In this document: positions 1,512 through 64,000 of the stretch, in pieces
How positions within the stretch are numbered: position 1 is the stretch's first letter
How the letters are laid out: every line of letters starts with the position of its first letter
Origin: Patescibacteria group bacterium
Lineage (GTDB): Bacteria > Patescibacteriota > Microgenomatia > UBA1406
Direction of reading: 5' to 3'
NCBI GenBank assembly: GCA_041665145.1
Contig: JBAYJK010000003.1
Coordinates: forward strand, 69,177 to 133,176
DNA length: 64,000 nucleotides
Notes under the pieces: model-generated
Databases searched by the model: none
What the model was told of the DNA's origin: nothing
The model's input: only the letters and a program-made list of their open reading frames with translations
Translations under genes and position numbers: made by a program

Positions 1512-2254
1512 ATGACCTCCGCTTGAAATGGCAATGGAAACGCGTTTATTGCGTTTACCCGTGCACTATGTGCGGCAATTCCCACCTTTCTACAATAATG
1601 TTCAAAAGCTGAAAGCTTTTGCGAAGTTGCATGCATACACCCCAGTGTTGCGGGGATATCATCCGTAAATAAGTCAATGGTAGGAACCGGGAAACCCATG
1701 AATATCGGAACCGGTGCAGAATTGACATAAAACGGATCTGAGACGTCAAAACCGAACCGTAAAGCCAACTCTCGGAGTCCCGGGGAAGTTGACCCTGCGA
1801 TTTTGTGCGTACTTGTATTCTGTTGCGATTGGAGTTCTAATTGAGTCGTCAGGAGCAATGTGTCGGTGAGAAGAAGCAGTTCGGTCTCAAGGAGTCGTGC
1901 TCTGTTTTTTGATGGAGTGTCCTCGAAAAAAGGCACAAGGTGAATTGAGAAATATGGTTCATGTGCGTCTACCACATGAATGCGGTTCTCTACCCGTGAC
2001 CTAAATCTCTGAGCATGCGCATATATGGTGCGGGCGAGCACTATCGATCCGGCCGGAAATAGCTCGACTTTTTCAAGACCGTCCGAGTACAGATCATAGT
2101 GGTGTTTGATGGTCATTGTGGTCAGCGTGGAATGAATGCGCATGAGTTCGTCAATCGGAGTCAATTCAAGTCTCCGGCGTAACTTTGCAAGAGCAGCTTT
2201 TGTGTGCGGAAGATGAACTTCGCCCTCCCACAGCAAATCTATTTTGGGTGCCAT
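1508..2254 (-). CDS. hypothetical protein (248 aa)
   Basis: Long ORF with TATAAT (reverse complement of 2261-2266) 6 nt upstream of the ATG at 2254. I recognise no motif. Confidence 0.6.
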   Translation of the reverse strand: MAPKIDLLWEGEVHLPHTKAALAKLRRRLELTPIDELMRIHSTLTTMTIKHHYDLYSDGLEKVELFPAGSIVLARTIYAHAQRFRSRVENRIHVVDAHEPYFSIHLVPFFEDTPSKNRARLLETELLLLTDTLLLTTQLELQSQQNTSTHKIAGSTSPGLRELALRFGFDVSDPFYVNSAPVPIFMGFPVPTIDLFTDDIPATLGCMHATSQKLSAFEHYCRKVGIAAHSARVNAINAFPLPFQAEVI

Positions 2255-2382
2255 GAGTATATTATACTATAGGATTTAGTATTATTCATCTTCGGTACTG
2301 CTCACAAAATAATATTAAAACTCTTGACATTAATTATAAATATTCTATTATTTATCCTAATTATTAATTAAATTACTATAAT

Positions 2383-3816
2383 ATGTCAGATACTTCTCTT
2401 CGAACGTTTCTCGAGATTCCGTATGATGAGCTGGAAGCACGTAACGTCTCGGCACGGAAAGCTGCAATAACGGAAACTCAAGAAGCTTTGGAAAAGGAGT
2501 ATCGTGCGTATCTTACCAAGGAAAAACGGATAAAAGCGGTAACGTTGTGTTTTACTGACATCGAAGGACGTTTTCATATGCTTGACTACGACAAGAAATT
2601 TTTTTTGAGTCACTCCGACAATCTGACTTTCGACGGTTCATCCATACGCGGATTTTCCGTTCTTAAGGAGTCGGATTTACGTTTGGAAATCGATTGGGCG
2701 AGTATACGCTGGTTACCTTCAGATATTTTCGGGCCGGGTAAAGTAGTCATGTTCGCATATGTCCAGAACAGAGACAGGAGTCCCTATTTGTCAGATTTCA
2801 GAAGCCGGCTGCGACTGTATACGGAAGAGTTGAAAAAAAAGCAGGGAGTAACGGCTTTTGCTTCAACAGAGATAGAAGGATTCGTTGTGCGGGGAGTTAA
2901 TGCCGAGCAAATGTATACCGAGGAAAAAGGTTTTGAGTTAATCTCGGGCAGCGGGTACTATCACTCCCTTCCTCTTGATGAGCTGCGTGTTTTTATTGAC
3001 CGCTCAGCGGAAGCACAACGGGCAATGGGATTTCAGAACGAGAAAGACCATCCCGAAGTTGCGCCGGCACAGTTTGAATTGAATTTCACGTTCACCGACG
3101 TTCTGACGCTCGCCGATACGATTCAGCTTTATAAATTGGTGTGTCGTCAGGTCGCAAACAATCTGGGAATGACCGCAACATTTTTACCGAAACCTGTTGC
3201 GGGGATAAACGGCAGCGGAATGCACATAAACTTGTCGTTGGGAAAAAACGGAAAGAATATTTTTTATAAAAAGAATGGAGCCGATGGTTTATCAAATGCC
3301 GCATGGGATGCGGTGAGCAAACTGTTGAATCATGCTCCGGAACTGTGCCTCCTTCTCAACCCGAGCGTTAATGCATATCGGAGACTTGATCCGCATTTCG
3401 AAGCACCGAATCAGATAAAAGTTTCTGCAATCGACCGGGGTTCCATGATCCGTATTCCCGTTGCCGACGAACGGAGTGCGCGGATAGAGATCCGGTCCGT
3501 TGCACCGGATGTAAACCCCTACGTTGCTTTATACAGCATATTGAAGATTATCAACGAAGGAAGCGCGCTGCAAAAGGACGAAGAAAAACGTGATCGGGTA
3601 CGTTTTCTTCCCGGAAATATCTATGATGCTATCCGGCTTTTTAAGGCAAGTGATTTTATGGGAAAAATTCTCGGTGAAGACAATCAGGCAAAGTACGCTG
3701 CCTATAAACAGTCGGCTGCGGACAGAAGTCCGAAAGATCTCGGAACAATTGTCAAGAAGTCCGAAATAATCTACCACCACGAAGTGACGAACCAGATGTT
3801 GTGGAATAGATTTTAA
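2383..3816 (+). CDS. glnA: glutamine synthetase
   Basis: 477 aa. It has the GS signature NGSGMHINLSL, PKPVAGINGSG, and the C-terminal region SARIEIRSVAPDVNPY. A TTGACA (2324-2329) N16 TATTAT promoter lies upstream. Confidence 0.9.
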   Translation: MSDTSLRTFLEIPYDELEARNVSARKAAITETQEALEKEYRAYLTKEKRIKAVTLCFTDIEGRFHMLDYDKKFFLSHSDNLTFDGSSIRGFSVLKESDLRLEIDWASIRWLPSDIFGPGKVVMFAYVQNRDRSPYLSDFRSRLRLYTEELKKKQGVTAFASTEIEGFVVRGVNAEQMYTEEKGFELISGSGYYHSLPLDELRVFIDRSAEAQRAMGFQNEKDHPEVAPAQFELNFTFTDVLTLADTIQLYKLVCRQVANNLGMTATFLPKPVAGINGSGMHINLSLGKNGKNIFYKKNGADGLSNAAWDAVSKLLNHAPELCLLLNPSVNAYRRLDPHFEAPNQIKVSAIDRGSMIRIPVADERSARIEIRSVAPDVNPYVALYSILKIINEGSALQKDEEKRDRVRFLPGNIYDAIRLFKASDFMGKILGEDNQAKYAAYKQSAADRSPKDLGTIVKKSEIIYHHEVTNQMLWNRF

Positions 3817-3828
3817 TAGACTAGTCAC

Positions 3829-3884
3829 GAGTCTAAGAGTCTCAATGTCTGAATGTCTAAATGTCTGAATGTCTAAATGTCTAA
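3829..3884. repeat. 7 tandem 8-nt units (GAGTCTMA x2, ATGTCTRA x5)
   Basis: Read directly from the sequence. It fills the spacer between the convergent glnA and nuclease genes, and the nuclease stop codon lies in the last unit. Confidence 0.9.
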
Positions 3885-4747
3885 AGTATAATACTGGTGT
3901 CTTCGATGCTGGAAGATTTGTTGAGAATATACACGTCGTTATCCATACTGTTGACACCGATGAACTCGGCCTTGTGTTGGAGGATAGCCTCCATCGGCTT
4001 ACAGAAACTGCAACCCGTTTTGTGCGGACATTTAAATAAATTCAGCTTTCGTGCAAGCTTAATTTTTTTGGCAATTTCCAATACGGACGCAAACGATTCT
4101 TCTGCATCTGGTAACCGTTGTTCGGCAAGATCATCGGACCGCTCGATATACCAATAACTTGCCCTCTCTACCTTCCGTTTTTGGCAGTTGGTGACTAACA
4201 GATAGTAGATGGGAAGTTGTAACGATTCCGAATCTTCATCGTGTTTTCCGGTCTTAAAGTCTATAATGTGCACGCTGTCGGTTTCGGGAAAATATTCCAG
4301 CCAATCAATTTTGCCGCACAAAATAATGTTTTCTTCCGGTGAAAGAAAAAAATACGGCAAATCCATGCTTATTTTCACGGCTTTATTTTTCAAGGGCCCC
4401 GGATGTTTTTGCACGCGGGAAAGCATGGCTTCAGCACGATTTTTATACTCGAGTTCTGTTTCTTTGTTAGTAAAGCCACCTTTTTTTCCACTTATTTTCG
4501 ACCATACAAAATCAAGCTTAACGGTTAACGGTTCGGCAAATCGCCGTTCGGAAGGAAGAATAGACAAAGATTCGAGAACTTCATGTACTGCACTTCCGAG
4601 AGCAAGCGGCGGACTCATCAGTTTTATTTTGTGCCCTGTCACCGGATCGCGGTACATATTCTTCAGGTAATACGAACGGGGGCATTTCAAAAAATCGCTG
4701 ATTGAACTGTGTGAAACCCACGTGGCGGAATAACGGTCGGCGATCAT
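3881..4747 (-). CDS. PD-(D/E)XK nuclease, RecB/Cas4-like, with a 4-Cys cluster
   Basis: N-terminal SISDFLKCPRSYY, core GKIDWLEY...HIIDFKTGK (D..D/ExK), and C-terminal CPHKTGCSFC. The four Cys are arranged as in AddB/Cas4 Fe-S nucleases. Confidence 0.75.
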   Translation of the reverse strand: MIADRYSATWVSHSSISDFLKCPRSYYLKNMYRDPVTGHKIKLMSPPLALGSAVHEVLESLSILPSERRFAEPLTVKLDFVWSKISGKKGGFTNKETELEYKNRAEAMLSRVQKHPGPLKNKAVKISMDLPYFFLSPEENIILCGKIDWLEYFPETDSVHIIDFKTGKHDEDSESLQLPIYYLLVTNCQKRKVERASYWYIERSDDLAEQRLPDAEESFASVLEIAKKIKLARKLNLFKCPHKTGCSFCKPMEAILQHKAEFIGVNSMDNDVYILNKSSSIEDTSIIL

Positions 4748-4770
4748 AGGGATATTATAACGTATTCAAT

Positions 4771-4828: not shown

Positions 4829-6595
4829 TCAAAAGAGTTCAAACTGTTCAAGAAGTTTTTTGTTTCCCTCAATCTGGTAACGCAATAAATCGGAATAGAT
4901 TCCTTTTCGCGTTGAGAGTTCTTTCGGCTTACCGTAATCTACCACCTGACCGTTGTCGATCACGATGACTTTATCTACGTTTTGGATGGTCGAAAAACGG
5001 TGGGCAATGATAATCACCAACTTATCTTTCATCAGGTGCCTCATGCCTTCCTGCACTTCGTTTTCCGAACGGGAGTCAAGGCTTGAAGTTGCTTCGTCCA
5101 GAATCAGAATCGGAGCATTCTTGTAAGATGCGCGCGCAATCTGAATCCGCTGTTTTTGACCCCCCGACAGGCGCACTCCCCGTTCTCCCACTTCGCTGTC
5201 TATACCCTTCGGGAGTTTCATGACGAAGTCATAGGCATTTGCCTGTTTCAGTGACGCAAGAACTTTCTGTTCGTCATACTCCATGCCGTATGATACATTT
5301 TCTTTTATGGTCGTAGAAAATAATTCGTTCTCCTGAAACACGAGCGCAATGGATTCACGTACTGTCCGGTAATCCAAAGTCGAATACTTTTTTCCTGAGA
5401 GAAGCAGTGTTCCTTTCGTCGGTTCGTACAGCTTCAGTATGAGGTTAACAATGGTTGACTTCCCCACTCCACTGTGGCCGACAAGCGCAACCGATTCCTG
5501 TTTTCCGATGTCAAACGAAATGTTTTTTAACACCATGTCAGACGATTCGTATTTGAAAGAAACATTTTTAAACGCGAGCGTCGGGCTTTTTGACGGCTTA
5601 CCCCGTTGAACTTTTGTGTAATCTTCCGTTGAGGGAAGTTTCATGATCTCGAAAAATTCGCGGGAACCACTTTCGGCCATTTGCACACGGGATAAAATGA
5701 AAGACATCGCAAATAACGGCCGTCTGGCAAGATTGACCATTTCGAGAATGAGTACCATTTCACTGATTGAAAGGTTACCCGAAAACGTGTTGTAGAAAAC
5801 AAGGATGCTGACAATACTCAGTATGACAACGAGACTACCGTTCCGGAAAAAATCAACGGTATGATATACGGCACTTTGATGCGCATATATTTTATTACTT
5901 TCGTCTAACTTCTGAGAAACTGTCCGGGCTTCAGTACTTTCATTGAGAAAGCTTTTTACGAGTTTGATGTTGCTGATAACTTCCTGAATCCGACCGCGGG
6001 TGTAATCTTCAATAACATTCTTTTTCTTCTCTTCTTCCCCCCACCATTTTGCCGAGTAGTAACTGAGGATGAGGTAAATCGGAAATAAAAGCGACATAAA
6101 AAAAGCGATCCACACGTTAAAGTAGGCAATAATCGATATGGTCAGTATGCTCTGCAGAATTGAGGGAAGAATGAAGTTGGTTGCCGTATTCATAAAGTCA
6201 TAAATGGTGCTGATTCCCCTGCTGAGTTGATTGAGGATCTTACCCGAGATTTCCGAATCAAAATAACTCTGCGGAAGCGTAAGTACTTTCGAATAGAACA
6301 TATCTGTCAAAAATTTCCGCAGCTTACCGGCGAAATGATCTCCAAGCCGTTCATTCGCAATACTTATTGTCATGCCGAGAAAACTGGCGGCAAAAGCGAT
6401 GACGATGAGTAAAGATACGGCACCGAGGTTGCCGCTCGAACTTTTTATCTGAAGCACGATCTGATCGATGACAAGTTTTGATAAAAGCGGTGCAATCATT
6501 TCCACCACGCCGCCGACGACGATGAGTAATGCAAGTGCCGCGATGAGATGATATAAGGGTTCTGATATTTGAATAATTTTCGCGATATTTTTCAC
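4829..6595 (-). CDS. ABC exporter, fused permease/ATPase (MsbA-like type I exporter)
   Basis: N-terminal 6-TM domain, Walker A GHSGVGKST, signature LSGGQKQR, Walker B ILILDEATS. Confidence 0.9.
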   Translation of the reverse strand: MKNIAKIIQISEPLYHLIAALALLIVVGGVVEMIAPLLSKLVIDQIVLQIKSSSGNLGAVSLLIVIAFAASFLGMTISIANERLGDHFAGKLRKFLTDMFYSKVLTLPQSYFDSEISGKILNQLSRGISTIYDFMNTATNFILPSILQSILTISIIAYFNVWIAFFMSLLFPIYLILSYYSAKWWGEEEKKKNVIEDYTRGRIQEVISNIKLVKSFLNESTEARTVSQKLDESNKIYAHQSAVYHTVDFFRNGSLVVILSIVSILVFYNTFSGNLSISEMVLILEMVNLARRPLFAMSFILSRVQMAESGSREFFEIMKLPSTEDYTKVQRGKPSKSPTLAFKNVSFKYESSDMVLKNISFDIGKQESVALVGHSGVGKSTIVNLILKLYEPTKGTLLLSGKKYSTLDYRTVRESIALVFQENELFSTTIKENVSYGMEYDEQKVLASLKQANAYDFVMKLPKGIDSEVGERGVRLSGGQKQRIQIARASYKNAPILILDEATSSLDSRSENEVQEGMRHLMKDKLVIIIAHRFSTIQNVDKVIVIDNGQVVDYGKPKELSTRKGIYSDLLRYQIEGNKKLLEQFELF

Positions 6596-7555
6596 TTAGC
6601 CATTATATCTAATTCCGTCGATTTTAGCCCGCTCATTTGTGTAGACAAGCCGTTCAACAAGCTTTTGGATATTATAACGAGGAGCTGGTGTTTCCCGAGC
6701 GATTGTAGCAGTTGGAGGCTTGTTGAATACCGCCACATCATTGCAAATTTTTCCGGCATCAATTATTTGCAATGGTGCGTGTGTCGCAACAAGTTGTGGT
6801 ACTGTTGTCTCTGCCGTTGCGCGGACAGGCAATGTTACCACGGCAATCATATCGGTCCCTAAACCTTTGGCTAATTGCCAGAATGATGCTATTGCAGACG
6901 CGTCCATAAGTTTACGTGCTGTATGACCCTTGAGCAAATGAGCGGCTATATGGTCAATGCCGGACGTAATAAGCGGAGCTATGGCGTATGCTCCCCAAAC
7001 AAATGACATGACGTAGGCAAGTTGGTGATCAGTCATATTCACTGTTTCTAATCCGTACATGACTGCGATACCTGTGCGGATAGTATCGTATAAAAAAGCC
7101 ATCAGTTTAAGTTCCCGAAGTGATAATTTTTCAGCAAGATTGAGCGATTCGGAAATAGTTCTATCCGGAAGTCTTTCGAAGCACGGAATTCTGACGTGTA
7201 TAATCCGTGAGTTCCGGTGCTCCAACCCACACAGCCCTCCGGGAACAACCAGCGTCAATTGCCGCGTTTCTTCGGAATTTTGTTTTTCCGAGAGGTGTGC
7301 AATCGCCGGGATAGTACCGTACGTAGGGACAAGTAAGCCATTGTCCAGAGGTGAATATCTCACTACTGGAAAAGAGACTAAGGAAGCATGCGTGCTGGAG
7401 AGTGTTTCTGCCACATGATGCTCGTTAATACGGGATGCGCCTCCGATTCCCCCAAGTCCATGTAAGGTTAAAATAAGAGCTATTGTATCGAGTGTATCCT
7501 TAGGATATTGCACTTCATGTCTGTTTATTTTGTTCGGAAATTCGCTGCTGGCCAT
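6596..7555 (-). CDS. hypothetical protein (about 320 aa)
   Basis: Its stop abuts the ABC start (6595/6596). I prefer the ATG at 7555 (MASSEFPN...) because TATACT sits 5 nt upstream, and the longer 7732 start overlaps the next ORF. No motif recognised. Confidence 0.55.
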   Translation of the reverse strand: MASSEFPNKINRHEVQYPKDTLDTIALILTLHGLGGIGGASRINEHHVAETLSSTHASLVSFPVVRYSPLDNGLLVPTYGTIPAIAHLSEKQNSEETRQLTLVVPGGLCGLEHRNSRIIHVRIPCFERLPDRTISESLNLAEKLSLRELKLMAFLYDTIRTGIAVMYGLETVNMTDHQLAYVMSFVWGAYAIAPLITSGIDHIAAHLLKGHTARKLMDASAIASFWQLAKGLGTDMIAVVTLPVRATAETTVPQLVATHAPLQIIDAGKICNDVAVFNKPPTATIARETPAPRYNIQKLVERLVYTNERAKIDGIRYNG

Positions 7556-7583
7556 TCGATAGTATAACAAACTATAGGATATC

Positions 7584-7772
7584 TTACAAGTGTTTTGGCC
7601 AGTGAATTTGGGGGACACCGAGTGTCGCAATTGCCATTGAAAGAAGTGCTTCTTTGTATCTTCCTTGGATTCCCAGTTCAGCAGCCGCCGTGATAAAACC
7701 GACAGACCATGCACCGAGAGCAAACGTCTCAATTTTGTCCCTCAGCGACAGTCTGCGTTGTTCATTTGACAT
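7584..7772 (-). CDS. small hydrophobic protein (62 aa)
   Basis: TATAAT (reverse complement of 7778-7783) lies 5 nt upstream of the ATG. The central segment FALGAWSVGFITAAAELGI is hydrophobic. Confidence 0.45.
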   Translation of the reverse strand: MSNEQRRLSLRDKIETFALGAWSVGFITAAAELGIQGRYKEALLSMAIATLGVPQIHWPKHL

Positions 7773-7826
7773 AAGGTATTATATCAAAAACATCGATTTA
7801 GCTTTCAGGACGCCTCATACCTTCAC

Positions 7827-8102
7827 TTAATTTTTTCCTGTTTTAGCCTGACCTTCTGTCATGACGAGTAATTTTCCCAATTCCTCAATAAACTTCATGG
7901 CATGCTCCCGGCTCATGCCGAGACGAGAAACAATCCGTACTTGGTTTGTTGTCCCAAGTCGTTGACAAACATCCAAAACTACTCCGAACTGATTGGTGGA
8001 CATCAGGATACTGTCCGTGTACATGATGGGTGTCGTATCCAAGTTGACGTTTAAATTTACCTGTTCTTGCTTTGCCAGATCAGAGCTCTGTTTTGTCGTC
8101 AT
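7827..8102 (-). CDS. DUF3467-like small protein
   Basis: 91 aa. The pattern MYTDSILMSTNQFGVVLDV...VRIVSRLGMSREHAMKFIEELGKLL matches my recollection of DUF3467. Confidence 0.5.
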   Translation of the reverse strand: MTTKQSSDLAKQEQVNLNVNLDTTPIMYTDSILMSTNQFGVVLDVCQRLGTTNQVRIVSRLGMSREHAMKFIEELGKLLVMTEGQAKTGKN

Positions 8103-8161
8103 GAAAATAATGTAAACTAGTAACTACTGAGGTAATTCTAGCTTATTTCCCAAAAAAAAGT

Positions 8162-9133
8162 CTATTTGGTCCTCTGCGCAAGGGAGAGCGCATCTTCGAA
8201 TCGGGAAAAAGTTTGGGAACGGAATGTTGACCAACCAATGTGTCGGTACGGTTGTGGACCGCTGGTTGACGGTTCAATCTTCTCCATTCTTCGCTCAACA
8301 TAATACTGTTGCGGCGACTCTTTGCTTTTAAACACCAAAACCATGATGACGCGATTATCTGCAGTAAACGACCAATGATATACCGGGATATCCAGAGGGT
8401 CGGTAATTTTATTTGCACCTCTTTCTGCTGTTGATAATGATGTATACGTGCGCGATAGATGCGGAATCAAACGCGGGTTCTGAAGACGTTGAACAAGCGC
8501 ATCATAGTGTGTAAAGCAGTTATCTTCACCCAATTTTCCGGTGCCAACAAGGTGATACAGAATTTTAACTGCAAGCTGGCGATCTTTTAATACTTTTTCA
8601 CTAAACCACACCAGTTTATCCGCAAACTCGACAGCAAAGTCCAGGGTGTGTTTTGCATGACCGGCAATTTCTTTTGACCAAAAATCAATAAATATCAGCG
8701 CGTCTCCTTTTGCTTTTTGATCGGGACACGCATTCAGAATTTCAACCACCCCCCGAGGATAGCCGTAATTTAGCGGGTGACCGAGACCGCGCATGCACTG
8801 GCGTTCATCAAATGGTACGGAATCTTCCTCAAATTTGCCGATCGGCTCAAAAGGAAACCGTTTCTCCGGCCTTTCCATAAGGTCAACAAGTTGAGCATTC
8901 GCCGGTCTCATGTTTTCGAGCAGCCAGCGGTACCAAAAGTTTACGGTCGCGTACCGATTGCGCATTTCCAGTGCGCCTCTTTTTAAAATGAGCTCAAGCG
9001 GTATCGGGCAATTATTTCTTTTAGCCATTTCAAGTGCCTGCTCCTCCGGGGAAAGTGAGAGAAAAAAGTGGTCATCAAGCTCTCCAAGGTGCCCGCTTCC
9101 GCGAATCTCCGCTTCGGTAATTTCAGTTGGCAT
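8162..9133 (-). CDS. hypothetical protein (323 aa)
   Basis: Long ORF with TATAAT 5 nt upstream of the ATG at 9133. No motif recognised. Confidence 0.6.
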   Translation of the reverse strand: MPTEITEAEIRGSGHLGELDDHFFLSLSPEEQALEMAKRNNCPIPLELILKRGALEMRNRYATVNFWYRWLLENMRPANAQLVDLMERPEKRFPFEPIGKFEEDSVPFDERQCMRGLGHPLNYGYPRGVVEILNACPDQKAKGDALIFIDFWSKEIAGHAKHTLDFAVEFADKLVWFSEKVLKDRQLAVKILYHLVGTGKLGEDNCFTHYDALVQRLQNPRLIPHLSRTYTSLSTAERGANKITDPLDIPVYHWSFTADNRVIMVLVFKSKESPQQYYVERRMEKIEPSTSGPQPYRHIGWSTFRSQTFSRFEDALSLAQRTK

Positions 9134-9228
9134 GCTCTATTATAGCACTCTGATAAGCTGAAATGATTTTTTTAATAACCGCTTGCTATTTATGCGAATA
9201 TGCAGTATTTAATATAGGTAATAAATTT

Positions 9229-10278
9229 ATGGAAAAAACATTGATCAAACGGAAACGAAAATACACCGTTGCCCTCCTCTACCACTTTGTACCGAAGACC
9301 GAGAAAGTACAGGATGAAGAGCACACTCTGACTGACGGAGAAACAGGTACCCTGATTCCCTATTTCAAACGAGTGTTTGAAAGTCATGATTTTAGGGTTC
9401 AGATTATTAAAATCCGAACAGACAACTACATGGCACTCAAAAAAGTCAAAGCGGATTATATTTTCAATTTGGTGGACAGTACAGAAATGTATTTGCGTAT
9501 CGGGAAAATATTGACCAAGATGAGCATCCCGTTCTCCGGTGCCTCGTTGGTCGGAATGCGCATTTCAAGCAACAAACTGCTTATGAAACGGATGTTCGAT
9601 AAATACAATATTTCGACCCCAAAATACACCATTATTCACATGAAAGACAGGATTACCCGTGACCTCGTGCCGTCAAAGTTTCCGGTAATCGTGAAACCGG
9701 CTTTTGAGCACTGCAGTATCGGTATAACCGTTGATTCGATTGCAACAAACTATCGGAACTTTCGGGCGGTCGTGAAAATGTTGCGGAGTAAATTCAACCA
9801 AACGTTACTCGCGGAAGAATTTATTGCGGGCCGCGAATTTCAAGTGACTGTTCTCGATACCCCCCGACGGACAATTGCGTTTCCGATCGCAGAGATTAAA
9901 TTCCGCTACGGCAAGGGAAACAAATGGAATATTTACGGGTATGACGAAAAGTGGAATAAAAACGTCGAAAGTTATAAATACCGGTATTTTGTCGCCCCTG
10001 CTCCCGGAGTCCCGAAAGATATCATGTATAAAATTAAGAAAGAGTGTATTCGTTCGTTTCATGCGTTCAATATGCGCGATTATGCACGTTTTGATCTCCG
10101 CTATTCTCCGGAACGGAAAATGTGGTATTTTCTGGAAGCAAACGCAACGTGTGATCTGGACCCGAGTCCCAAAGAAGCTACTACCACCTCTGTCCGGGCA
10201 CGCGGCATGACGCTTGATGAGTTCATCATCAGCATTGTGAACGATACGCTTGAAAAACGAGAGCAAACGATGCAATAA
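9229..10278 (+). CDS. ATP-grasp enzyme (D-Ala-D-Ala ligase-like fold)
   Basis: Segments SNKLLMKRMFDKYNISTPKY, FPVIVKPAFEHCSIGI and EEFIAGREFQVTVL form the ATP-grasp pattern. The start is taken at MEKTLIK rather than the upstream ATG at 9163. Confidence 0.7.
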   Translation: MEKTLIKRKRKYTVALLYHFVPKTEKVQDEEHTLTDGETGTLIPYFKRVFESHDFRVQIIKIRTDNYMALKKVKADYIFNLVDSTEMYLRIGKILTKMSIPFSGASLVGMRISSNKLLMKRMFDKYNISTPKYTIIHMKDRITRDLVPSKFPVIVKPAFEHCSIGITVDSIATNYRNFRAVVKMLRSKFNQTLLAEEFIAGREFQVTVLDTPRRTIAFPIAEIKFRYGKGNKWNIYGYDEKWNKNVESYKYRYFVAPAPGVPKDIMYKIKKECIRSFHAFNMRDYARFDLRYSPERKMWYFLEANATCDLDPSPKEATTTSVRARGMTLDEFIISIVNDTLEKREQTMQ

Positions 10279-10285
10279 TGATAGT

Positions 10286-10657
10286 ATGAAAAACTTACTC
10301 CAAAACGTTACTCAACAGGCCAGAGACAATGAATATTTTAGAAGAGTTCTTGCAACCGGAAAGCATACACAGGTAGTTATTATGAGCATCGCGGTCGGTG
10401 AAGACATCGGTGAGGAAACACACGCGGAGAATGACCAGGTACTCTATCTACTTGAAGGTGAAGGCGAAGTTGTTCTGGATGGCGAGCGTTCCCCCTACAA
10501 AGCTGGTGATCTCGTACTTGTTTCTGCCGGTATAAAACATAATTTCATTAATACCGGCGAAGTCCCGTTGAAAATACTTACCACCTATTCTCCTTCCCAT
10601 CATCCTGAAGGAACGGTACATAAAACGAAAGAAGAAGCGGAAAAGGCGGAATATTAG
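10286..10657 (+). CDS. cupin-domain protein
   Basis: GEETHAENDQVLYLLEGEG...GDLVLVSAGIKHNFINTG shows cupin motifs 1 and 2. Confidence 0.8.
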   Translation: MKNLLQNVTQQARDNEYFRRVLATGKHTQVVIMSIAVGEDIGEETHAENDQVLYLLEGEGEVVLDGERSPYKAGDLVLVSAGIKHNFINTGEVPLKILTTYSPSHHPEGTVHKTKEEAEKAEY

Positions 10658-10669: not shown

Positions 10670-10689
10670 GGGCCGGGCATGCCCGGCCC
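10670..10689. repeat. REP-like GC-rich perfect palindrome GGGCCGGGCATGCCCGGCCC (intergenic copy)
   Basis: A 20-nt perfect palindrome (16/20 G+C) in an AT-rich spacer between the convergent cupin and RayT-like genes. It may act as a bidirectional terminator hairpin. Confidence 0.85.
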
Positions 10690-10706
10690 GTACGAATTTA
10701 ACATTT

Positions 10707-11162
10707 TCATTTCCTTGGATTGTATTCAATATAGTTTCTGATTGCGGTTAATTCTTTTTCATTCCTGATGATTCGGTCATAAAATGATCGATGCCATTGA
10801 AAATTAATACCCAACAAATGAATTAATTTCGAAGATGTTGATTTGAATGACCCAATGATTGTCGGTAGTAGGGGCCGGGCATGCCCGGCCCGTGGAACAG
10901 AGAAGTTGTTTATTACAATAATTCCATGCACATGGTCCGGCATTACGATATGCCGGTCAATTGAAACGGATTCAAAATGTTCGGGGATTTGAAACCATGT
11001 TTGGTGCATGGTCGTTCCAATTGGGTTGACACATATGCGTCCATGTTTTATCTCACCGAATATATTTCCGCGTTCTTGTGCGCATATGGTAATAAAATAC
11101 CACGCGTTTGAAGAATAATTGAAGTTTCTGTACATATTGGACTTACGAACAACAAAGACCAC
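10707..11162 (-). CDS. REP-associated tyrosine transposase-like protein (RayT / IS200-type Y1 HUH)
   Basis: HUH motif PDHVHGIIVI and C-terminal QWHRSFYDRIIRNEKELTAIRNYIEYNP, typical of COG1943/RayT. The start is uncertain (GTG at 11162 or ATG at 11135). Confidence 0.8.
   Translation of the reverse strand: MVFVVRKSNMYRNFNYSSNAWYFITICAQERGNIFGEIKHGRICVNPIGTTMHQTWFQIPEHFESVSIDRHIVMPDHVHGIIVINNFSVPRAGHARPLLPTIIGSFKSTSSKLIHLLGINFQWHRSFYDRIIRNEKELTAIRNYIEYNPRK
10872..10891. repeat. Second copy of the REP-like palindrome, embedded in-frame in the RayT-like CDS
   Basis: The same 20-mer with the same TA..GT flanks. It encodes ...PRAGHARPLL... Confidence 0.85.
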
Positions 11163-11981: not shown

Positions 11982-12002
11982 AAAAAGAGTATATCACCTC
12001 TT

Positions 12003-12588: not shown

Positions 12589-12610
12589 TCAAATTGGTAT
12601 AATTGACCCA

Positions 12611-56798: not shown

Positions 56799-59700
56799 AT
56801 GAATAGAATAATTGATCTTAAAATTGAAGGAATGCATTGTCAGTCGTGCGAAATGTTAATCAAAGATGAGCTGTCTTCCCTTTCGGGTGTCAAAGACGTT
56901 AGTACTGACTATAAAACTGGCCGCGGAACAGTCACTTTAACCAATCGGGTTACTTCAGACGCGGCAATTCTTGACTCTGTAAAAAATGCAGGGTATGTGG
57001 CTTCTGTAATTACTTCCAATCATCTGAGTAACAACGTATCACAATTGCCACAAGAAAAGGGAACATTTGCTTTTTTGAATTTCCCAAAGGAAATAGGTCT
57101 TGAAGGAACAATCGGCAAGAATGCAGAAGGACAGGTGACCATTAAAGGTAAGTTACGATTTAATTCTAACGAAAGCGATGAACCTCACCAACTCGCTCAG
57201 CCGAATAACGTTGTCGAAAATAATACTTTTGCTGGTAAAACGGAACGAACTAGTTTGGTCATTATAGGAATGCATTGTTCCTCTTGTGCCGCAATTATTG
57301 AGAGACAGTTAAAAAAGGTGACTGGTGTATCAGAAGCAAAAGTTAATTTCGCTTCTGAAAAAGCATCTGTAGTTTACAATTCGGGCGTAACAAAGACAGA
57401 AGATTTAATAAAAGCAGTTGAAAAATCTGGATACAAAGCTGCTCCCGCTCATACTGAAGACTCACAAGCTCAAGCAAAACGCCAAACATCAGAAATAAAG
57501 CATCAATGGAACAGATTCATTATCAGCATGGTGTTGTCGTCCCCAATGATTTATTTCATGTTTCTTGATTTCTTTAATTTTCTACCGGGAACCAAGCTCA
57601 TACTTCCCTACATTGGAATCATATCGTTTGTATTAGCAACACCCGTACAATTCATCATTGGCTCCAACTTTTACAAAGGAATGATTTCCGCCTTAAAGAT
57701 GCGTACGTTTAACATGGATAGTTTAATAGCTATAGGGACATCCGTTGCCTATTTCTATAGCGCTGCTAACTTTATCCAATACTTTATAACCAACAATTCC
57801 TTAATTGGCCTTGCAGGAGCCAAAATTCCAGATTTGTACTTTGAAACTGCAGCATTCCTTATTACGTTTGTTATTCTAGGAAAATTCCTTGAAGCAAAAG
57901 CCAAAGGAAGGACATCTGAAGCGATTAAGAAACTCATGGGTTTGCAGGCAAAAACAGCACGAGTTATACGAAACGGAGAGACAGTTGATATTCCTGTTGA
58001 CCAGGTTATCAAAAACGATATTATCATGGTTCGACCCGGAGAAAAAGTCCCCGTAGATGGAACGATTACGAAAGGCTCCTCTTCTATCGACGAATCAATG
58101 ATAACCGGTGAGAGTCTTCCTGTTGAAAAACATGTTGAGGACACAGTTATCGGCGGCACAATAAATAAAGTCGGTAGCTTTGAGTTTATGGCAACACGAG
58201 TGGGGTCTGAAACTACGCTCGCCCAAATTATCCGCCTCGTTGAAGACGCACAGGGTTCTAAGGCACCCATTCAAGCTGTTGCCGATAAGATTTCTGCATA
58301 CTTTGTTCCGGGTGTAATAGCACTTGCCGTTTTGACATTTGTTGTCTGGTTTTTCTTTTTAGGGTCAACGCTTTCTTTCGCTCTAATGGCATTTACGGCA
58401 GTTATTGTTATTGCCTGTCCTTGTGCTCTGGGCCTTGCCACCCCGACAGCCATAATGGTTGGAACGGGAGTTGGGGCTGAACATGGCATCTTAATCAAAG
58501 GTGGCGAACCATTGGAAAGTGCAAGTAAAATAAATACGATTGTTTTCGACAAAACAGGAACTATCACAAAAGGAAAGCCCGAAGTAACTGATGTTGAAGA
58601 TGTTGGTTCGCTTGACGATAAAGAAGTGCTTGCTATTTCTGCAAGTCTTGAAAAGCAATCCGAACACCCCCTTGCTGAAGCAATATATTCTTACTCTCAA
58701 GAGGAAGGTGTGACTCTTAAAGAAGTTGAGAAGTTTAGTGCAATTCCAGGCCATGGCGTCAAAGGGACTATTGGAAACAAAGATTACTTTTTCGGAAATC
58801 GCAAGCTTATTACCGAAACGCTTGGTTTGGATATCGGTAAGTTTGAACGGAAGCTCGTACGACTCGAAGAACAGGGAAAAACAGCAATGATCCTATCTTC
58901 AAAAGACGAAGTGCTTGGACTGATTGCTGTTGCTGATACGATAAAAACCACTTCGAGAGAAGCTATTGAAAAACTCAAGAAGATGAAGATTGAAGTATGG
59001 ATGATCACAGGGGACAATACCCGTACGGCTAAGGCAATTGCTGCACAAGTCGGTATTGACAATGTCCTCGCCGAAGTCTTGCCTCAAGATAAGGCCAACG
59101 AAGTAAAAAAACTTCAGGAACAAGGTAAAAAAGTAGCGATGGTAGGAGACGGTATTAATGACGCACCGGCACTTGCACAAGCTGAACTTGGAATTGCAAT
59201 GGGTTCGGGAACTGATGTTGCCATGGAAGCCGGAGGAATCGTCATCATTAAGAATGATCTCAGAGATGTAGTTAATGCACTCGATCTTTCCAAGAGCGCC
59301 GTGCAAAAAATACAACAAAACATGTTCTTTGCTTTGTTCTATAACGTTATCGGCATTCCAATCGCTGCGCGTGTATTTATGTTCGCGGGCCTTGTGTTAA
59401 AGCCGGAACTTGCTGGTCTTGCGATGGCACTTAGTTCAGTTTCTGTAGTAAGCAACTCACTGCTTCTTCGGCGCTACCGTCCGGGAAAAAAGAACTATAT
59501 ATCTATGTTTGCACCGATTGTTATGATGATCGCTTTTACGTTACTGTTTATCGAATTTGCACGGTTTAGTTCCACTATGGCTGCACCAAAGAAGATGGAT
59601 TCGAAAGTAACCAATTCTCGTGCAGTTAGTAATGTGGTAGAAATAAGCGCTCCCACTGGAGTTAAAAAACAGTTCTATATGGTAGGAAACAGTATTCCTA

Positions 59701-59948: not shown

Positions 59949-59978
59949 ATGAAATAAGTCTGCTATGAGGCCGATGTG

Positions 59979-60049
59979 CTGGGGGACGTGGATTCGGACC
60001 ACGATAAACAGCTCCAAAGGCTGCTGTCCTACCATTAGACGATCCCCCA
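59979..60049 (-). tRNA. tRNA-Gln (anticodon UUG), no encoded CCA
   Basis: The manual cloverleaf is TGGGGGA/TCCCCCA acceptor stem, GTCT/GGAC D stem, GCAGC-CTTTGGA-GCTGT anticodon arm, and CGTGG-TCCGAAT-CCACG T arm, with discriminator G. The 5' TGGGG.ATCG start resembles the bacterial tRNA-Gln I remember. Confidence 0.85.
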
Positions 60050-60126
60050 ATTGAACAGCAATATTCTAACATACAAATATTATCTTATAAAGGTAAATAA
60101 GATTAGACTAGTGATATACTTTAGTT

Positions 60127-60669
60127 ATGGCAAAGTACGATTTTAAGCCTTACTATTGTGAGTTTCCCAAGTTGTTTAAGGACGAACAACGTCGTCTTCG
60201 AAGTTTCCTTGGAAACAGCCCAGTAATTGAGCACTTCGGGAGCTCTGCTGTCCCTGGTCTTGGAGGAAAGGGGATCATCGATATTTTTGTTGCTGTTCCC
60301 AGAGATCAAATGAAATCGACGTCTGAGCTACTTCTAAAAGCAGGATACGGATATCGAGAAACTGGAGGTGACTCAGAACGATTGTTCCACCAACGTACTG
60401 TTTTGCATAGTGAGAATATCACTCAAATATACCATGTTCACGTTACTTTTCTTGAAAATGAGAATTTCAAGCAAGCAATTCTTTTTAGGAATTACTTACG
60501 AACACATGAGACTGATCGTCTTGAATATGCCCGAGTCAAAGAGATCGGTGCCAAGCTTGTAGAAGGTGTTGAAGACAAGAAATCGAAGAAAGAGCTCTAC
60601 ATGAAGGCTAAAGAGACTACGGTTGCAGCAATTCTTAAAAAAGCAATTGAAAGCAGTAAAAAATCCTGA
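60127..60669 (+). CDS. GrpB-family (UPF0157) nucleotidyltransferase-fold protein
   Basis: IEHFGSSAVPGLGGKGIIDI, HVHV, and FRNYLRTH. Confidence 0.8.
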   Translation: MAKYDFKPYYCEFPKLFKDEQRRLRSFLGNSPVIEHFGSSAVPGLGGKGIIDIFVAVPRDQMKSTSELLLKAGYGYRETGGDSERLFHQRTVLHSENITQIYHVHVTFLENENFKQAILFRNYLRTHETDRLEYARVKEIGAKLVEGVEDKKSKKELYMKAKETTVAAILKKAIESSKKS

Positions 60670-60672: not shown

Positions 60673-61251
60673 TCACTTAAGTAAATTTAACTGCTTTCTT
60701 CTAATAATTAATAAAGTACTTTCAATAATATTGATTAATAAATTTGTTACCGGGTAAAGCCATGTGAGTAGGGAGTAATTTGCCAAAGCCAAAAGCCCCA
60801 AAAAGTTACGTACCGCACCCATCTTCCACGTAAAGAGTGTCTCGGAATGTGGATCTTTCCATGACTTTCGGATGGTGGGCAAGTTCGCAAGGGTGTTTAT
60901 GGTAACGATCAAAACGGTTGAGATAACCGGTTCTTTCGCGAAAATCCACACGCATGTTGCTATGAGTGCGATAATGAAAGTTATCGTATCAAACTTAGTT
61001 ATGTCTTTTTCTCCATTCTTGAGGCCTAAAATGTAAATGGTCAAGCAAAGAATAGCTGTGGCGAGGGTTGTATAGGCACCTGCACCACCTTTTCCTAAAA
61101 TCTGAAGCGCAAAAATGATAAAAGTTACAAATGCCCAGATAAACCAACTGTATATATGGGGTTTAGTTTTGCCTTTTACAGTATCCCAGATGTACGGAGC
61201 ATACCCAATGAAGGTTAAGATTACTGCTAGAGCCCCTAATACGTCTTTCAT
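60673..61251 (-). CDS. hypothetical 6-TM membrane protein
   Basis: 192 aa and hydrophobic. TATAAT lies 6 nt upstream of the ATG at 61251. Confidence 0.6.
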   Translation of the reverse strand: MKDVLGALAVILTFIGYAPYIWDTVKGKTKPHIYSWFIWAFVTFIIFALQILGKGGAGAYTTLATAILCLTIYILGLKNGEKDITKFDTITFIIALIATCVWIFAKEPVISTVLIVTINTLANLPTIRKSWKDPHSETLFTWKMGAVRNFLGLLALANYSLLTWLYPVTNLLINIIESTLLIIRRKQLNLLK

Positions 61252-61300
61252 GCGCTTATTATACTAAAAGCTATTCTCAGGAAGTACGAACGTTATTAGT

Positions 61301-61362
61301 CTTACTCGATACCCATGTAACAAGAACACAACCAGGATTCGGACTAGTGATATAATTTTATA
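61301..61362 (+). repeat. Family-2/3 repeat with promoter cassette, copy L (inverted relative to D and H)
   Basis: CTTACtcgaTAcCCaTGTAACAAgaacacaaCCaGGATTCGGACTAGTGATATAATtttataATG. 29 of 30 nt are identical to copy D across aaattatatcactagtccgaatccNggttg. Confidence 0.85.
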
Positions 61363-61668
61363 ATGACGAAACTATTATCCTTGCTTCTGGCAATTTCCTT
61401 TGTGACTACTCCTAATGTATTTTTTCGTATTGCTAGTTACCTTGATCCACATGGGGGATTTGAAGACTTGGGCTTAGCTGTTTTTGTTTTCGGCTTGTCG
61501 ATTATATTCATAACATTTTATGTATTCGTATTTGCCTATATCTACGTCAGAATATTTAAAAGAAAAGACTTTCAGAATATTTTTAAAGGCTCTGTGCTCT
61601 GGCTACTAGGACTTGCGCTTCTCGGCAATTTGTTTATTTTTCTTAAAAGCCTCTTACTTAAACACTAA
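61363..61668 (+). CDS. small 3-TM membrane protein
   Basis: 101 aa. TATAAT 61351-61356 lies 6 nt upstream of the ATG. Confidence 0.5.
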   Translation: MTKLLSLLLAISFVTTPNVFFRIASYLDPHGGFEDLGLAVFVFGLSIIFITFYVFVFAYIYVRIFKRKDFQNIFKGSVLWLLGLALLGNLFIFLKSLLLKH

Positions 61669-61763
61669 TTGTTTATTGCGAAGCGTAAAATTTCCCGACT
61701 TATTTTCTCGAATAACGATAATAGTATATTGAAAAACGATAAATCGTGGAATATACTGTCAAT

Positions 61764-62240
61764 ATGAAACGAGGTTCCACTTTATTTCTAAAGGTCGTAA
61801 TTTTACTCACTGCCATTAGTGTGCTTACCGCCATGCTTTGGTTCCCTCAAACTGAGGGAAGAGCTGCTAACTTAGATCTAATCAGTATTTATACAGATCC
61901 CGTTATTATTTATATGTATATAGCATCAATTTCTTTCTTCATTGGGCTATATCAGGCATTTAAACTACTAAATCTTATTGACGCTAACAAAGCATTCTCC
62001 CAAGGTGCTGTTAATACACTCAAAAATATGAAGTTTTCCTCACTTACCCTTATCGGATTAATTGCAGTAGCTGAAGGCTATATCCGTTTCTTTGCACACG
62101 GCGACGATCCAGCTGGTCCGACAATGCTTGGTTTTTGTTTAGTAATAGCATTTGCCGTTATTGCCACAGCAGCCAGTGTCTTTCAAAAACTTCTCCAAAA
62201 TGCTGTAGATATAAAATCAGAAATTGATTTAACTGTATAA
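61764..62240 (+). CDS. DUF2975-like membrane protein
   Basis: 4 TM, followed by a YozG-like HTH gene (a known pairing). The ATG at 61764 is preferred because TATACT 61752-61757 lies 6 nt upstream. Confidence 0.6.
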   Translation: MKRGSTLFLKVVILLTAISVLTAMLWFPQTEGRAANLDLISIYTDPVIIYMYIASISFFIGLYQAFKLLNLIDANKAFSQGAVNTLKNMKFSSLTLIGLIAVAEGYIRFFAHGDDPAGPTMLGFCLVIAFAVIATAASVFQKLLQNAVDIKSEIDLTV

Positions 62241-62474: not shown

Positions 62475-62527
62475 ATAATGAGAATTTCTTTTCATGGTAT
62501 TTGCCCAGAGTAAAATTTCACAGCTTC

Positions 62528-62574
62528 ATCAACAAAACCCAGCACTAGTCCTGTAAAACGAATTATAACGACTC
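62528..62574 (-). repeat. Family-4 repeat, copy M (inverted)
   Basis: The reverse complement reads GTCGTTATAAttcgtttTACAgGACtAGTGCTGGGTTTTGtTGAT. Confidence 0.8.
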
Positions 62575-62600
62575 TGAATAATGTTGTGATATAATAGTTT

Positions 62601-63242
62601 ATGTTTTTAGAGCACTGGAAAAGGCTTTTTGCTGGCGACAGAGATAAGACTCATTTAACGAACGGAGGACTTGACTTGCGTGACGCTGAGCTTTTGGATG
62701 TTGCTGAATCGCGCGTTTTTAGAAAAGGTGGGTCTGTTTTAAAAATTTATGACACTCCTCTTTCAAGGGGAATAATTACTCGCTCCACGCTACAACTATA
62801 CAAAAGGCTCACCGGACAAGTCTCACAAGAACTAACCCAAAGATCTGATGAGTGGTCGTTTTCAGGGCAATGTATTTCTATACACTGGAACGTGGTGGAA
62901 ATAGACAATTTAGGAGAATTGCCTGGAACCGGAGATGCATGGTCTATGAGTAAATACGTGCCGGGAATTAATCTGAGAGATATGTATTACCCGCAGTGGG
63001 CTCGACGACAAGTTATACAACAAGCTGTCCTGAAAGGTCGCGAGGAGCAGATGAGAGGTTTATTGGACCGGGTATCGCTCGAAGTAAATGCACGGCTGAA
63101 TACAGATTTAACAGACATAGATCTTACCAATGTCATCGTAGATGCTTCAAATACAGGCTTATTATTCAATGTAACCGATGTCTGTGGAATAGTTTCAAAG
63201 GTTGATGGTGGTTATGCAAGAGTTCCATTGATGTTTGAGTAA
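62601..63242 (+). CDS. hypothetical protein, possibly an atypical kinase-like fold
   Basis: 213 aa. The pair DIDLTNVIVD ... FNVTDVCG weakly resembles a kinase catalytic loop and DFG. Confidence 0.4.
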   Translation: MFLEHWKRLFAGDRDKTHLTNGGLDLRDAELLDVAESRVFRKGGSVLKIYDTPLSRGIITRSTLQLYKRLTGQVSQELTQRSDEWSFSGQCISIHWNVVEIDNLGELPGTGDAWSMSKYVPGINLRDMYYPQWARRQVIQQAVLKGREEQMRGLLDRVSLEVNARLNTDLTDIDLTNVIVDASNTGLLFNVTDVCGIVSKVDGGYARVPLMFE

Positions 63243-63244
63243 TG

Positions 63245-63282
63245 CTATAAGGCCTTCTTGGTCCACATTCGTTACTCCCAGC
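63245..63282 (-). repeat. Family-1 junction repeat, copy K (inverted)
   Basis: The plus strand reads CTATAAGGCCttcttGGTCCACAttCGTTACTCCCAGCc, the reverse complement of the family consensus. Confidence 0.85.
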
Positions 63283-63332
63283 CAATTCTTCGCTAAAGCT
63301 TCGAAGTCATTTTAATTTGATAAAATATTTTT

Positions 63333-64000
63333 ATGAGAGTTGCATCCTACAATATATTAAGCGGTGGTTTTAATTCTTACAGTTATGATTCACCATTACC
63401 CGAGCGAATAGATATACTCAAAAAAGTAATTAAAAGTATTAATGCTGATTTTATTGGTCTTATAGATACTTTCAGGTGGGATAGTCTATATACCAACAAA
63501 CAACTAGCCGAGCTTTTTTCGTATAAAAGTGCCTATTGTATAAATTTGAATGACCAACGCTTGATAAAGAAAGGTCACAATAACGGAATAACCGTATTAA
63601 CTAATGTACCGGTTGATCATTTTGAAACAGTGAGGATCGAAACACGTAATGCAATTAAATCCACTCTTAAGATAAATAAAAACACTTTAGATATATTTAC
63701 GGTTTATTTGGATGATTTAAGCGAAGATACGAGAATATTGCAATCAAAAAAGTTGTTACAAAATGTCAGTCAGGACAATCCAACTATAGTCATGGGAGAT
63801 CTTAATACGCTCAGTGAACATGATATACCGAAAATTATTCCATTTATTGATCAATTAGCTACTGAAAGTCCTCAAATATATGAAGGCCTCCACTCAGTTT
63901 TAAGTGAAATGAAACGAGGGGAAGTAATAAAAATGTTTGAAGCTTATGGATTAAAAGATGCTGGAAAGAATGAAGGGCCCACTGCGCCTACAAGGTTAGT
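63333..64000 (+). CDS. endonuclease/exonuclease/phosphatase family protein (3' end outside window)
   Basis: This ORF is absent from the ORF track because it has no stop in the window. My own translation is MRVASYNILSGGF...TIVMGDLNTL... The frame stays open to base 64000. TAAAAT lies 6 nt upstream of the ATG. Confidence 0.75.
   Translation, partial: MRVASYNILSGGFNSYSYDSPLPERIDILKKVIKSINADFIGLIDTFRWDSLYTNKQLAELFSYKSAYCINLNDQRLIKKGHNNGITVLTNVPVDHFETVRIETRNAIKSTLKINKNTLDIFTVYLDDLSEDTRILQSKKLLQNVSQDNPTIVMGDLNTLSEHDIPKIIPFIDQLATESPQIYEGLHSVLSEMKRGEVIKMFEAYGLKDAGKNEGPTAPTRL

Follow-up and report, generated by a model that had tools for sequence, protein, structure and literature searches.

The window analysed here is a 64,000-nt stretch of DNA from a Patescibacteria group bacterium with a 42% GC genome. 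It holds about 75 genes, many of which are preceded, a few nucleotides ahead of the start codon, by a hexamer resembling TATAAT (hereafter, the box). Both strands were scanned, and a box was defined as TATAAT with at most one mismatch, A at its second and T at its sixth position being kept, and with a gap of 5–8 nt to the start codon. Curation of starts was aided by independent gene calls on the source contig (ENA ERZ27249449:k141_479163, 479,716 bp).

Boxes ahead of start codons

The curated set contains a box at 37 of ~75 genes (22 are exact and 15 have a single mismatch), in agreement with an earlier note on this DNA that had counted near-consensus −10 hexamers at about 35 of about 77 starts. 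Five further boxes of the form TAnnnT at gap 6 bring the number of box genes to 42. They are listed with the hexamer in capitals, the gap in nucleotides, the start codon and the gene, lengths being in amino acids (aa) and ORF standing for open reading frame.

2252–2269 (−): tagTATAAT-6-ATG; 248-aa gene, divergent from a glnA-like gene
4745–4762 (−): TATAAT-6-ATG; PD-(D/E)XK nuclease gene
6593–6610 (−): TATAAT-6-GTG; ABC transporter, box within the final codons of the same-strand gene ahead of it
7553–7569 (−): tgtTATACT-5-ATG; 319-aa gene, same start picked by the independent caller
7770–7786 (−): tgaTATAAT-5-ATG; 62-aa ORF
8100–8117 (−): TACATT-6-ATG (2 mismatches, TAnnnT); 91-aa gene
9131–9147 (−): tgcTATAAT-5-ATG; 323-aa gene
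10271–10288 (+): tgcAATAAT-6-ATG; cupin gene, start as in the independent call
11979–11996 (−): tgaTATACT-6-ATG; endonuclease/exonuclease/phosphatase gene
12483–12500 (−): TATTAT-6-ATG; 160-aa gene
12595–12613 (+): tggTATAAT-7-ATG; OmpR-type response regulator
17236–17253 (−): TACAAT-6-ATG; NAD-dependent epimerase/dehydratase family gene (tdh of the earlier note)
18256–18273 (−): tggTATAAT-6-ATG; rlmN, box within the 3′ end of the RecD-like helicase gene
19454–19471 (−): tgcTAGACT-6-ATG (2 mismatches); RecD-like helicase
22414–22433 (−): TAAAAT-8-ATG (weak); NUDIX gene
23670–23687 (−): tgcTAAACT-6-GTG (2 mismatches); short-chain dehydrogenase
23731–23748 (+): tgcAATAAT-6-ATG; Fur-family regulator
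27127–27144 (−): tggTATAAT-6-ATG; GNAT acetyltransferase
27467–27484 (−): TATAAT-6-ATG; Rieske protein, 73-bp divergent region in common with 27543
27529–27545 (+): TATAAT-5-ATG; 210-aa gene, divergent partner of the Rieske gene
30796–30813 (−): TATACT-6-GTG; P-type cation ATPase
30843–30860 (+): tgcTATAAT-6-ATG; 128-aa gene
37348–37365 (−): tgaTATAAT-6-ATG; HTH_3 regulator
38574–38591 (−): tgaTACAAT-6-ATG; DinB-like gene
40672–40689 (−): actagtgaTATAAT-6-ATG; HAD hydrolase
41175–41192 (−): tggTATACT-6-ATG; GNAT gene, 74-bp divergent region in common with 41252
41237–41254 (+): tgcTATAAT-6-ATG; SET-domain protein
42614–42631 (−): tgaTATAAT-6-ATG; deaminase, in the repeated GGATTCGGACTAGTGATATAAT cassette
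43341–43360 (−): tgaTATAAT-8-ATG; alpha/beta hydrolase
44415–44433 (−): tgtTATACT-7-ATG; RhuM/Fic protein
44593–44610 (+): tagTATAAT-6-ATG; S51 peptidase (pepE-like)
46115–46132 (−): tagTATAAT-6-ATG; 254-aa hydrolase, repeated cassette
47588–47605 (+): TAGTAT-6-ATG (2 mismatches); 86-aa gene
50116–50133 (+): TATAAT-6-ATG; second OmpR-type response regulator
52507–52524 (+): tgtTACGAT-6-ATG (2 mismatches); P-type ATPase
56816–56834 (+): TAAAAT-7-ATG; HMA/P-type ATPase, start as in the independent call (1038 aa)
60112–60129 (+): actagtgaTATACT-6-ATG; GrpB
61249–61266 (−): tagTATAAT-6-ATG; 192-aa gene
61348–61365 (+): tgaTATAAT-6-ATG; 101-aa gene, repeated cassette
61749–61766 (+): TATACT-6-ATG; DUF2975 gene, GTG 61746 picked by the independent caller
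62587–62603 (+): tgaTATAAT-5-ATG; 213-aa gene
63318–63335 (+): tgaTAAAAT-6-ATG; endonuclease/exonuclease/phosphatase gene

The spacing is nearly constant. The gap is 6 nt in 32 of the 42, 5 nt in five, 7 nt in three and 8 nt in two, as expected from the earlier description of it as mostly exactly 6. The 16 examples quoted there by coordinate are all exact TATAAT hexamers lying 5–7 nt (13/16 exactly 6) ahead of the ATG of a long ORF. Because the TAA within TATAAT is in frame with the start codon solely at gaps 5 and 8, the gap-6 peak is not created by in-frame stops; such stops could inflate the gap-5 and gap-8 counts.

The presence of the box at start codons is confirmed as real and far beyond chance. 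In a comparison with 100 second-order Markov shuffles, which considers every ATG on both strands and needs no gene calls, exact TATAAT at gap 6 before ATG occurs 15 times versus 0.80 ± 0.94 in the shuffles (shuffle maximum 5), so that the predicted enrichment at −12 to −7 is borne out within the window. With up to one mismatch, the gap-6 count is 31 versus 11.1 ± 3.2. Exact boxes at gap 5 also exceed the shuffles (5 versus 0.8, maximum 4), and the remaining gaps in the 0–30 range show no excess. The window contains 67 exact TATAAT in total, of which 22 sit 5–8 nt ahead of a gene start; 21 of these open ORFs of at least 100 aa, the other being 37350 (68 aa). As a control for circularity, the first start codon of each maximal ORF (n = 73) was used instead of the box-chosen starts, and a box was then found at 29/73 genes compared with 12/927 internal in-frame starts, or 2/363 when internal in-frame ATGs only are counted. 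The box is equally frequent, at about half of genes, in the core (1–42 kb) and in the repeat-rich part (42–64 kb).

With regard to gene context, the box precedes 24 of 38 first genes (divergent from their neighbour or separated from it by more than 25 nt) and 11 of 28 genes that lie at most 25 nt behind a same-strand gene; the association with first genes is thus an enrichment and not exclusive. Divergent pairs with 59–125 bp between start codons have one box per side, as in the pairs 30798/30858 (59 bp), 27469/27543 (73 bp) and 41177/41252 (74 bp), each with two boxes. Some putative promoters lie inside the last codons of the upstream gene, examples being that of 6595, directly past the upstream stop, and that of rlmN (18258), within the helicase gene. 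Seventeen boxless genes are at most 25 nt behind or overlap the upstream gene, several via a 4-nt ATGA, and this tight packing points to translational coupling.

The box was also said to resolve several ambiguous starts, and its choices mostly agree with independent evidence. RlmN from start 18258 matches its relatives from residue 1, the relatives' ORFs beginning at the same position. Start 7555 was called independently by the gene caller on the source contig. The S51 peptidase Pfam domain starts at residue 3 of the 44608 version of the pepE-like protein, and the Rossmann (Pfam) domain of the epimerase starts at about residue 4 of the 17238 version of the gene that had been named tdh. For 61764 and 47603, the candidate alternatives are 61746 and 47597.

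Promoter-like signature and Shine-Dalgarno use

Alignment of the 73 starts on their start codons reveals signal at −15/−14 (T, G), −12, −11 and −7, with A at −11 the strongest (45/73); G is nearly missing at −1 (3/73), and no purine-rich block is present. When the alignment is anchored on the box instead, T occupies −15 in 34 and G occupies −14 in 27 of the 42 sequences. A TGn extension precedes 25/42 boxes versus ~6% by chance, in line with the earlier view that many are extended −10 boxes (TGnTATAAT), and several of the boxes without TGn have a ‘TAG’ variant. Within the hexamer A at −11 is best conserved, followed by T at −12 and T at −7. Position −1 is a pyrimidine (T/C) in 35/42 and G in 0/42, and the start codon is ATG in 39 genes and GTG in three. 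As also noted earlier, there is no obvious −35 element: the −30 to −40 region of the 42 box starts has no information content, its best TTGACA matches are close to background, and a generic two-hexamer −35/−10 scan is weakly enriched (55 versus 41 ± 5.5), such a scan being of little use because the promoters do not have a −35. TG at −15/−14 and a dispensable or absent −35 are the hallmarks of the extended −10 class.

The distance between a sigma-70 hexamer and the transcription start is canonically such that the hexamer occupies −12 to −7, which here would make the A of the ATG position +1. The −12/−7 hexamer, TG, A-11/T-7 and pyrimidine(−1)/purine(+1) together are a textbook sigma-70 extended −10 signature. 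Over their initial 40 nt, the predicted leaderless mRNAs also fold slightly more weakly than internal windows of equal GC (−3.3 versus −4.5 kcal/mol, p = 0.03), which lends slight support to a leaderless reading.

Shine-Dalgarno (SD) pairing was assessed as the duplex energy of the −20 to −3 region with CACCUCCUUA, using a cut-off of −6 kcal/mol. Only 5/73 starts reach it versus 9.9% of random positions (2/37 box genes and 3/36 genes without a box), and the mean energy at starts, −1.2 to −1.6 kcal/mol, is weaker than the background of −2.2 kcal/mol. Sequence complementary to the anti-SD is not enriched at −20 to −4 in the window (6–7% of starts versus 10% background). The claim of virtually no SD therefore stands. 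The upstream regions of the 33 curated genes without a box are AT-rich and G-poor, and a de novo search of them for an alternative ribosome-binding motif returned only AT-rich words (TAA, TTA and TAAT being the only ones enriched) and no purine motif. GGTGAGG before 48374, which had been named as one exception, is present, but it is joined by a second SD-like site.

48357–48376 (+): SD-like exception aaaGGTGAGGtaaaaATG; the one strong site, duplex −8.9 kcal/mol, 2 nt past the upstream stop, gene 48374
37139–37156 (−): SD-like exception GGAG, ~9 nt before ATG 37141; duplex −5.9 kcal/mol, operon-internal gene

No rRNA was found in the window with Rfam, tRNA-Gln being the only match, and no 16S 3′-region motif was found in 96 fetched loci. 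In a study of ribosomes of the Candidate Phyla Radiation (CPR), the anti-SD motif was less often detected solely in a subgroup of Parcubacteria, and bS1 tended to be shorter (PMC9297842). Microgenomates therefore probably retain the anti-SD, and would barely use it.

Host, relatives and repeats

The RlmN protein of the window matches GTDB genomes at up to 64% identity over its full length, the named ones being Candidatus Roizmanbacteria and Gottesmanbacteria (CPR Microgenomates), and the next tier of matches comes from Dependentiae (TM6) and other phyla. The organism is a Roizmanbacteria-like CPR/Microgenomates bacterium, uncultured and ultra-small. The closest relatives by RlmN, in GTDB genomes as well as in JGI metagenomes, are 64–69% identical and share almost no gene order with the window, whose DNA is 100% identical in two Logan assemblies carrying the same proteins. 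Loci from relatives and outgroups were examined for a box at gap 5–8 and for SD duplexes of −6 kcal/mol or stronger.

18 GTDB CPR loci (283 genes): box 20%, with a gap-6 peak (26 genes); SD 8% versus background 8%
11 GTDB outgroup loci (166 genes): box 5%, no peak; SD 26%
44 JGI loci with RlmN at least 50% identical (439 genes): box 21.9%, gap 6 10.5% versus 1.8% per gap; SD 5.5% versus background 8.2%
17 JGI outgroup loci (175 genes): box 4.0%; SD 32%

The JGI relatives differ from the outgroups with a Fisher p = 8e-9, and AT-rich outgroup loci (27–35% GC) show no gap-6 peak. Since two independent sets of relatives have the gap-6 peak without SD use, the architecture is a trait of the lineage. 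The window genome lies at the strong end of this trait and the relatives are weaker, those nearest its level being loci L059 (10/26), L050 (8/21) and L002 (6/21). Relatives also show a shoulder at gaps 7–11, and their orthologous rlmN starts are a mix of boxes at leaderless distance and boxes 11–21 nt upstream. In the left flank of the source contig, 6/13 independently called genes have a box, including ruvA. The ruvC-ruvA-ruvB cluster lies just left of the window (L034 2711–3289 and neighbours); ruvA has TATACT-6-ATG, and two small genes upstream in the cluster have exact TATAAT at gaps 6 and 7, so the rule reaches housekeeping genes outside the window.

Several repeats were noticed in the window, some of them next to boxes. 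A ~55-nt promoter-region cassette ending in CAACnnGGATTCGGACTAGTGATATAAT-6-ATG precedes three unrelated genes (42614–42680, −; 46115–46180, −; 61300–61365, +), and the shorter ACTAGTGATATAAT is also found ahead of 40674 and 60127. Either an operator common to these genes or a duplicated promoter module could account for it. GGATTCGGAC is the reverse complement of the tRNA-Gln T-arm across 10 nt only, and a match of this length is insufficient to conclude that GGATTCGGACT, present in the three cassettes, derives from a tRNA. The 16-nt sequence CTTCATAAAATCTTAA is repeated exactly at 47563–47578 and 54691–54706 (+) in the metal-resistance block, upstream of 47597/47603 and 54720, and may be a leadered promoter (TAAAAT 18–28 nt before ATG) or a regulator binding site. 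The two paralogous OmpR-type regulators (12611–13285 and 50131–50799) are 79% identical over their first 42 nt, and both have an exact TATAAT at leaderless distance.

A ~45-nt repeat, GCTGGGAGTAACGGATGTGGACCnGnAAGGCCTTATAG, is present in four copies (43373–43410, 44500–44537 and 47463–47500, +; 63246–63282, inverted). The repeat is loosely similar to the 3′ half of the tRNA-Gln gene (59978–60049, −) when that is read as its reverse complement. The copies bound blocks of 43.4–44.5, 44.5–47.5 and 47.5–63.2 kb, the last of which holds metal-resistance P-type ATPases, HMA proteins and a two-component system, and they may be attachment-site (att) remnants of integrated islands. A 63-nt inverted repeat, 84% complementary, has its arms 17 kb apart (45284–45346 and 62510–62572); it is intergenic and adjoins genes 44608–45258 and 62601. 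Two copies of a perfect, GC-rich palindrome, GGGCCGGGCATGCCCGGCCC, are separated by 174 nt (10670–10693 and 10868–10891), one in the gap past the cupin gene and the other within ORF 10707–11135. Tandem paralogous alpha/beta hydrolases (S9/S33-like) lie at 32331–33401 and 33487–34554. Canonical intrinsic terminators, with a GC-rich hairpin followed by a run of T, show no enrichment between 26500 and 46400 (14 versus 16.6 ± 5.0 in shuffles).

Probable leaderless initiation and its alternatives

The boxes are probably extended −10 promoters that give rise to leaderless mRNAs with a 5′-terminal AUG, read without SD pairing. In this mechanism, a TGnTATAAT promoter of sigma-70 type would place the start of RNA polymerase at, or 1–2 nt from, the A of the start codon, and the AUG at the 5′ end of the resulting mRNA would be recognised directly by the ribosome. 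About half of the genes in the window would be organised in this manner, including ~60% of operon-first genes and also some tightly packed genes, whose promoter would be embedded in the last codons of the gene upstream. Most other genes lie at most 25 nt behind their neighbour or overlap it, often by ATGA, and are most likely reached through termination-reinitiation coupling or short unstructured leaders. Both the position of the transcription start and the ribosome pathway of the two gene classes we infer from sequence. Every sequence-level prediction of the leaderless interpretation that can be tested agrees with it, and the interpretation is supported to that extent.

Some observations weigh against it. 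The glnA-like (glutamine synthetase) gene at 2383 has a TATAAT that abuts its ATG (gap 0; 2371–2385, +) and therefore cannot yield a leaderless mRNA from that ATG; its transcript is probably made from a box further upstream and carries a short, AT-rich leader. The first gene 32295 has its TATAAT 24 nt upstream, which is not a leaderless distance. The rule is not uniform, as the metal-resistance block is poorer in boxes, and the right flank of the source contig is box-poor as well (1/9 genes). Eleven boxes, five of them exact (6595, 18258, 27129, 40674 and 50131), precede genes at most 25 nt behind a same-strand gene, a pattern that a translation signal would also give. Finally, the probable retention of the anti-SD in Microgenomates leaves the lack of SD use unexplained.

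The alternative that survives best departs from the leaderless reading by only a few nucleotides: many transcripts might start 1–5 nt upstream or a few nucleotides downstream of the ATG, so that the genes would be near-leaderless or would rely on a downstream start codon. Start-site choice varies by ~1 nt in characterised bacteria, 10/42 boxes are at gap 5, 7 or 8, and the shoulder at gaps 7–11 in relatives would fit such leaders. As a general account it is nevertheless unlikely, given that 32/42 gaps are exactly 6, that the preferred purine lies seven positions past the hexamer and that pyrimidine(−1)/A(+1) is the favoured start context. Leaders of 1–5 nt are likely for the minority of boxes at gap 7–8 and for many genes in relatives; by convention, 5′ untranslated regions of up to ~5 nt behave as leaderless.

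Less probable still, and very unlikely, is a role of the box in translation initiation rather than as a promoter, in which it would serve as a non-SD signal on mRNAs with leaders, either a motif like that of ‘group B’ in the GeneMarkS-2 classification or an AT-rich unstructured patch. Another signal might be expected in a genome without SD use, and the boxes before the 11 of 28 tightly packed genes, exact at the five named above, would be accounted for. However, a ribosome signal does not need TG at −15/−14, A-11/T-12/T-7 or pyrimidine(−1)/A(+1). The box is also enriched at first genes and missing from 33 other genes, whose upstream regions have no common motif. The divergent pairs with two boxes are likewise difficult to reconcile with it, since start codons only 59–125 bp apart leave no room for separate upstream promoters. 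Furthermore, no bacterium is known whose 16S tail would pair with UAUAAU.

An artefact of base composition, of box-based start choice or of duplicated promoter cassettes spread by mobile DNA can be dismissed as the main cause: ACTAGTGATATAAT does occur four times and GGATTCGGACT three times, all at 40–63 kb, and some starts had first been chosen by the box rule, but the peak survives shuffling and the first-start-codon rule, agrees with the independent gene calls, is made up of 42 boxes whose upstream sequences are unrelated apart from TGn, is as frequent at 1–42 kb as at 42–64 kb, and is not seen in AT-rich outgroups.

The preferred leaderless reading has clear precedents. In GeneMarkS-2 ‘group C’ genomes, a Pribnow box lies 6–8 nt from the start of operon-first genes; the group comprises mainly Actinobacteria (90%) and Deinococcus-Thermus (97%), with experimental support in M. 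tuberculosis and D. deserti (PMC6028130). As in Mycobacterium tuberculosis, M. smegmatis, Corynebacterium, Streptomyces and Deinococcus deserti, the window has a −10 motif at a fixed distance that is enriched at first genes and followed by an AUG or GUG start without SD; in group C, 25–60% of transcripts are leaderless (PMC6028130). Unlike in group C, where the remaining genes use SD (dual model), the boxless genes here are also without it (3/36 reach −6 kcal/mol versus 9.9% background). Group C lineages are high-GC, whereas the present case combines 42% GC, near-perfect TGnTATAAT and no −35 in a CPR/Microgenomates lineage. The boxes share TG at −15/−14, a consensus hexamer and a dispensable −35 with extended −10 sigma-70 promoters, but in this genome their placement is systematic, with a constant distance to the start codon.

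Two further systems are similar in part. Archaeal leaderless transcriptomes (group D), those of haloarchaea among them, have mostly leaderless first genes, little or no functional SD and tight coupling of operon-internal genes. Their promoters, however, consist of TATA/BRE ~26 nt upstream and act with an archaeal initiation apparatus (PMC6028130). Bacteroidetes (group B) also have no genome-wide SD use and have AT/A-rich upstream regions, but their mRNAs are leadered and the same motif precedes first and internal genes (PMC6028130), whereas the box is enriched at first genes and missing from 33 genes here. The mechanism class is thus already known from mycobacteria and Deinococcus; what differs here is the lineage, the absence of SD in non-leaderless genes and the low-GC TGnTATAAT form without a −35. 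Full-text literature searches found no description of leaderless mRNAs in CPR/Patescibacteria; matches combining leaderless or SD with CPR were confined to title citations of GeneMarkS-2, YchF and leaderless secretion, and a 2024 perspective on Patescibacteria biology gave no gene-expression-signal matches for promoter or translation-initiation terms.

More broadly, and tentatively, SD-led initiation may have been given up altogether in Roizmanbacteria-like Microgenomates and perhaps in a large part of the CPR, with leaderless mRNAs from extended −10 promoters as the default for operon-first genes and reinitiation or unstructured AT-rich junctions for the rest. As this kind of architecture is well known, the advance is in lineage and degree, not in principle; the form found here is unusually pure and SD-free. 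Gene-expression signals in CPR/Patescibacteria are almost uncharted. If the reading is true, a simple rule would improve start-codon annotation in such metagenome-assembled genomes, several starts having been changed or fixed in the window alone, and ready promoter designs would be at hand for the Patescibacteria genetic tools under construction. On the broader view, these organisms would be a third large lineage of bacteria in which most of the transcriptome is leaderless, and the first such bacteria with low GC and a reduced ribosome (no uL30, usually no bL9 and a shortened bS1), linking ribosome reduction to the mode of initiation. It would mean that a bacterium can run without SD pairing at both first and internal genes, and it would provide a testable tie between the reduced ribosome of the CPR and initiation on leaderless mRNAs, a mode frequently discussed as ancestral.

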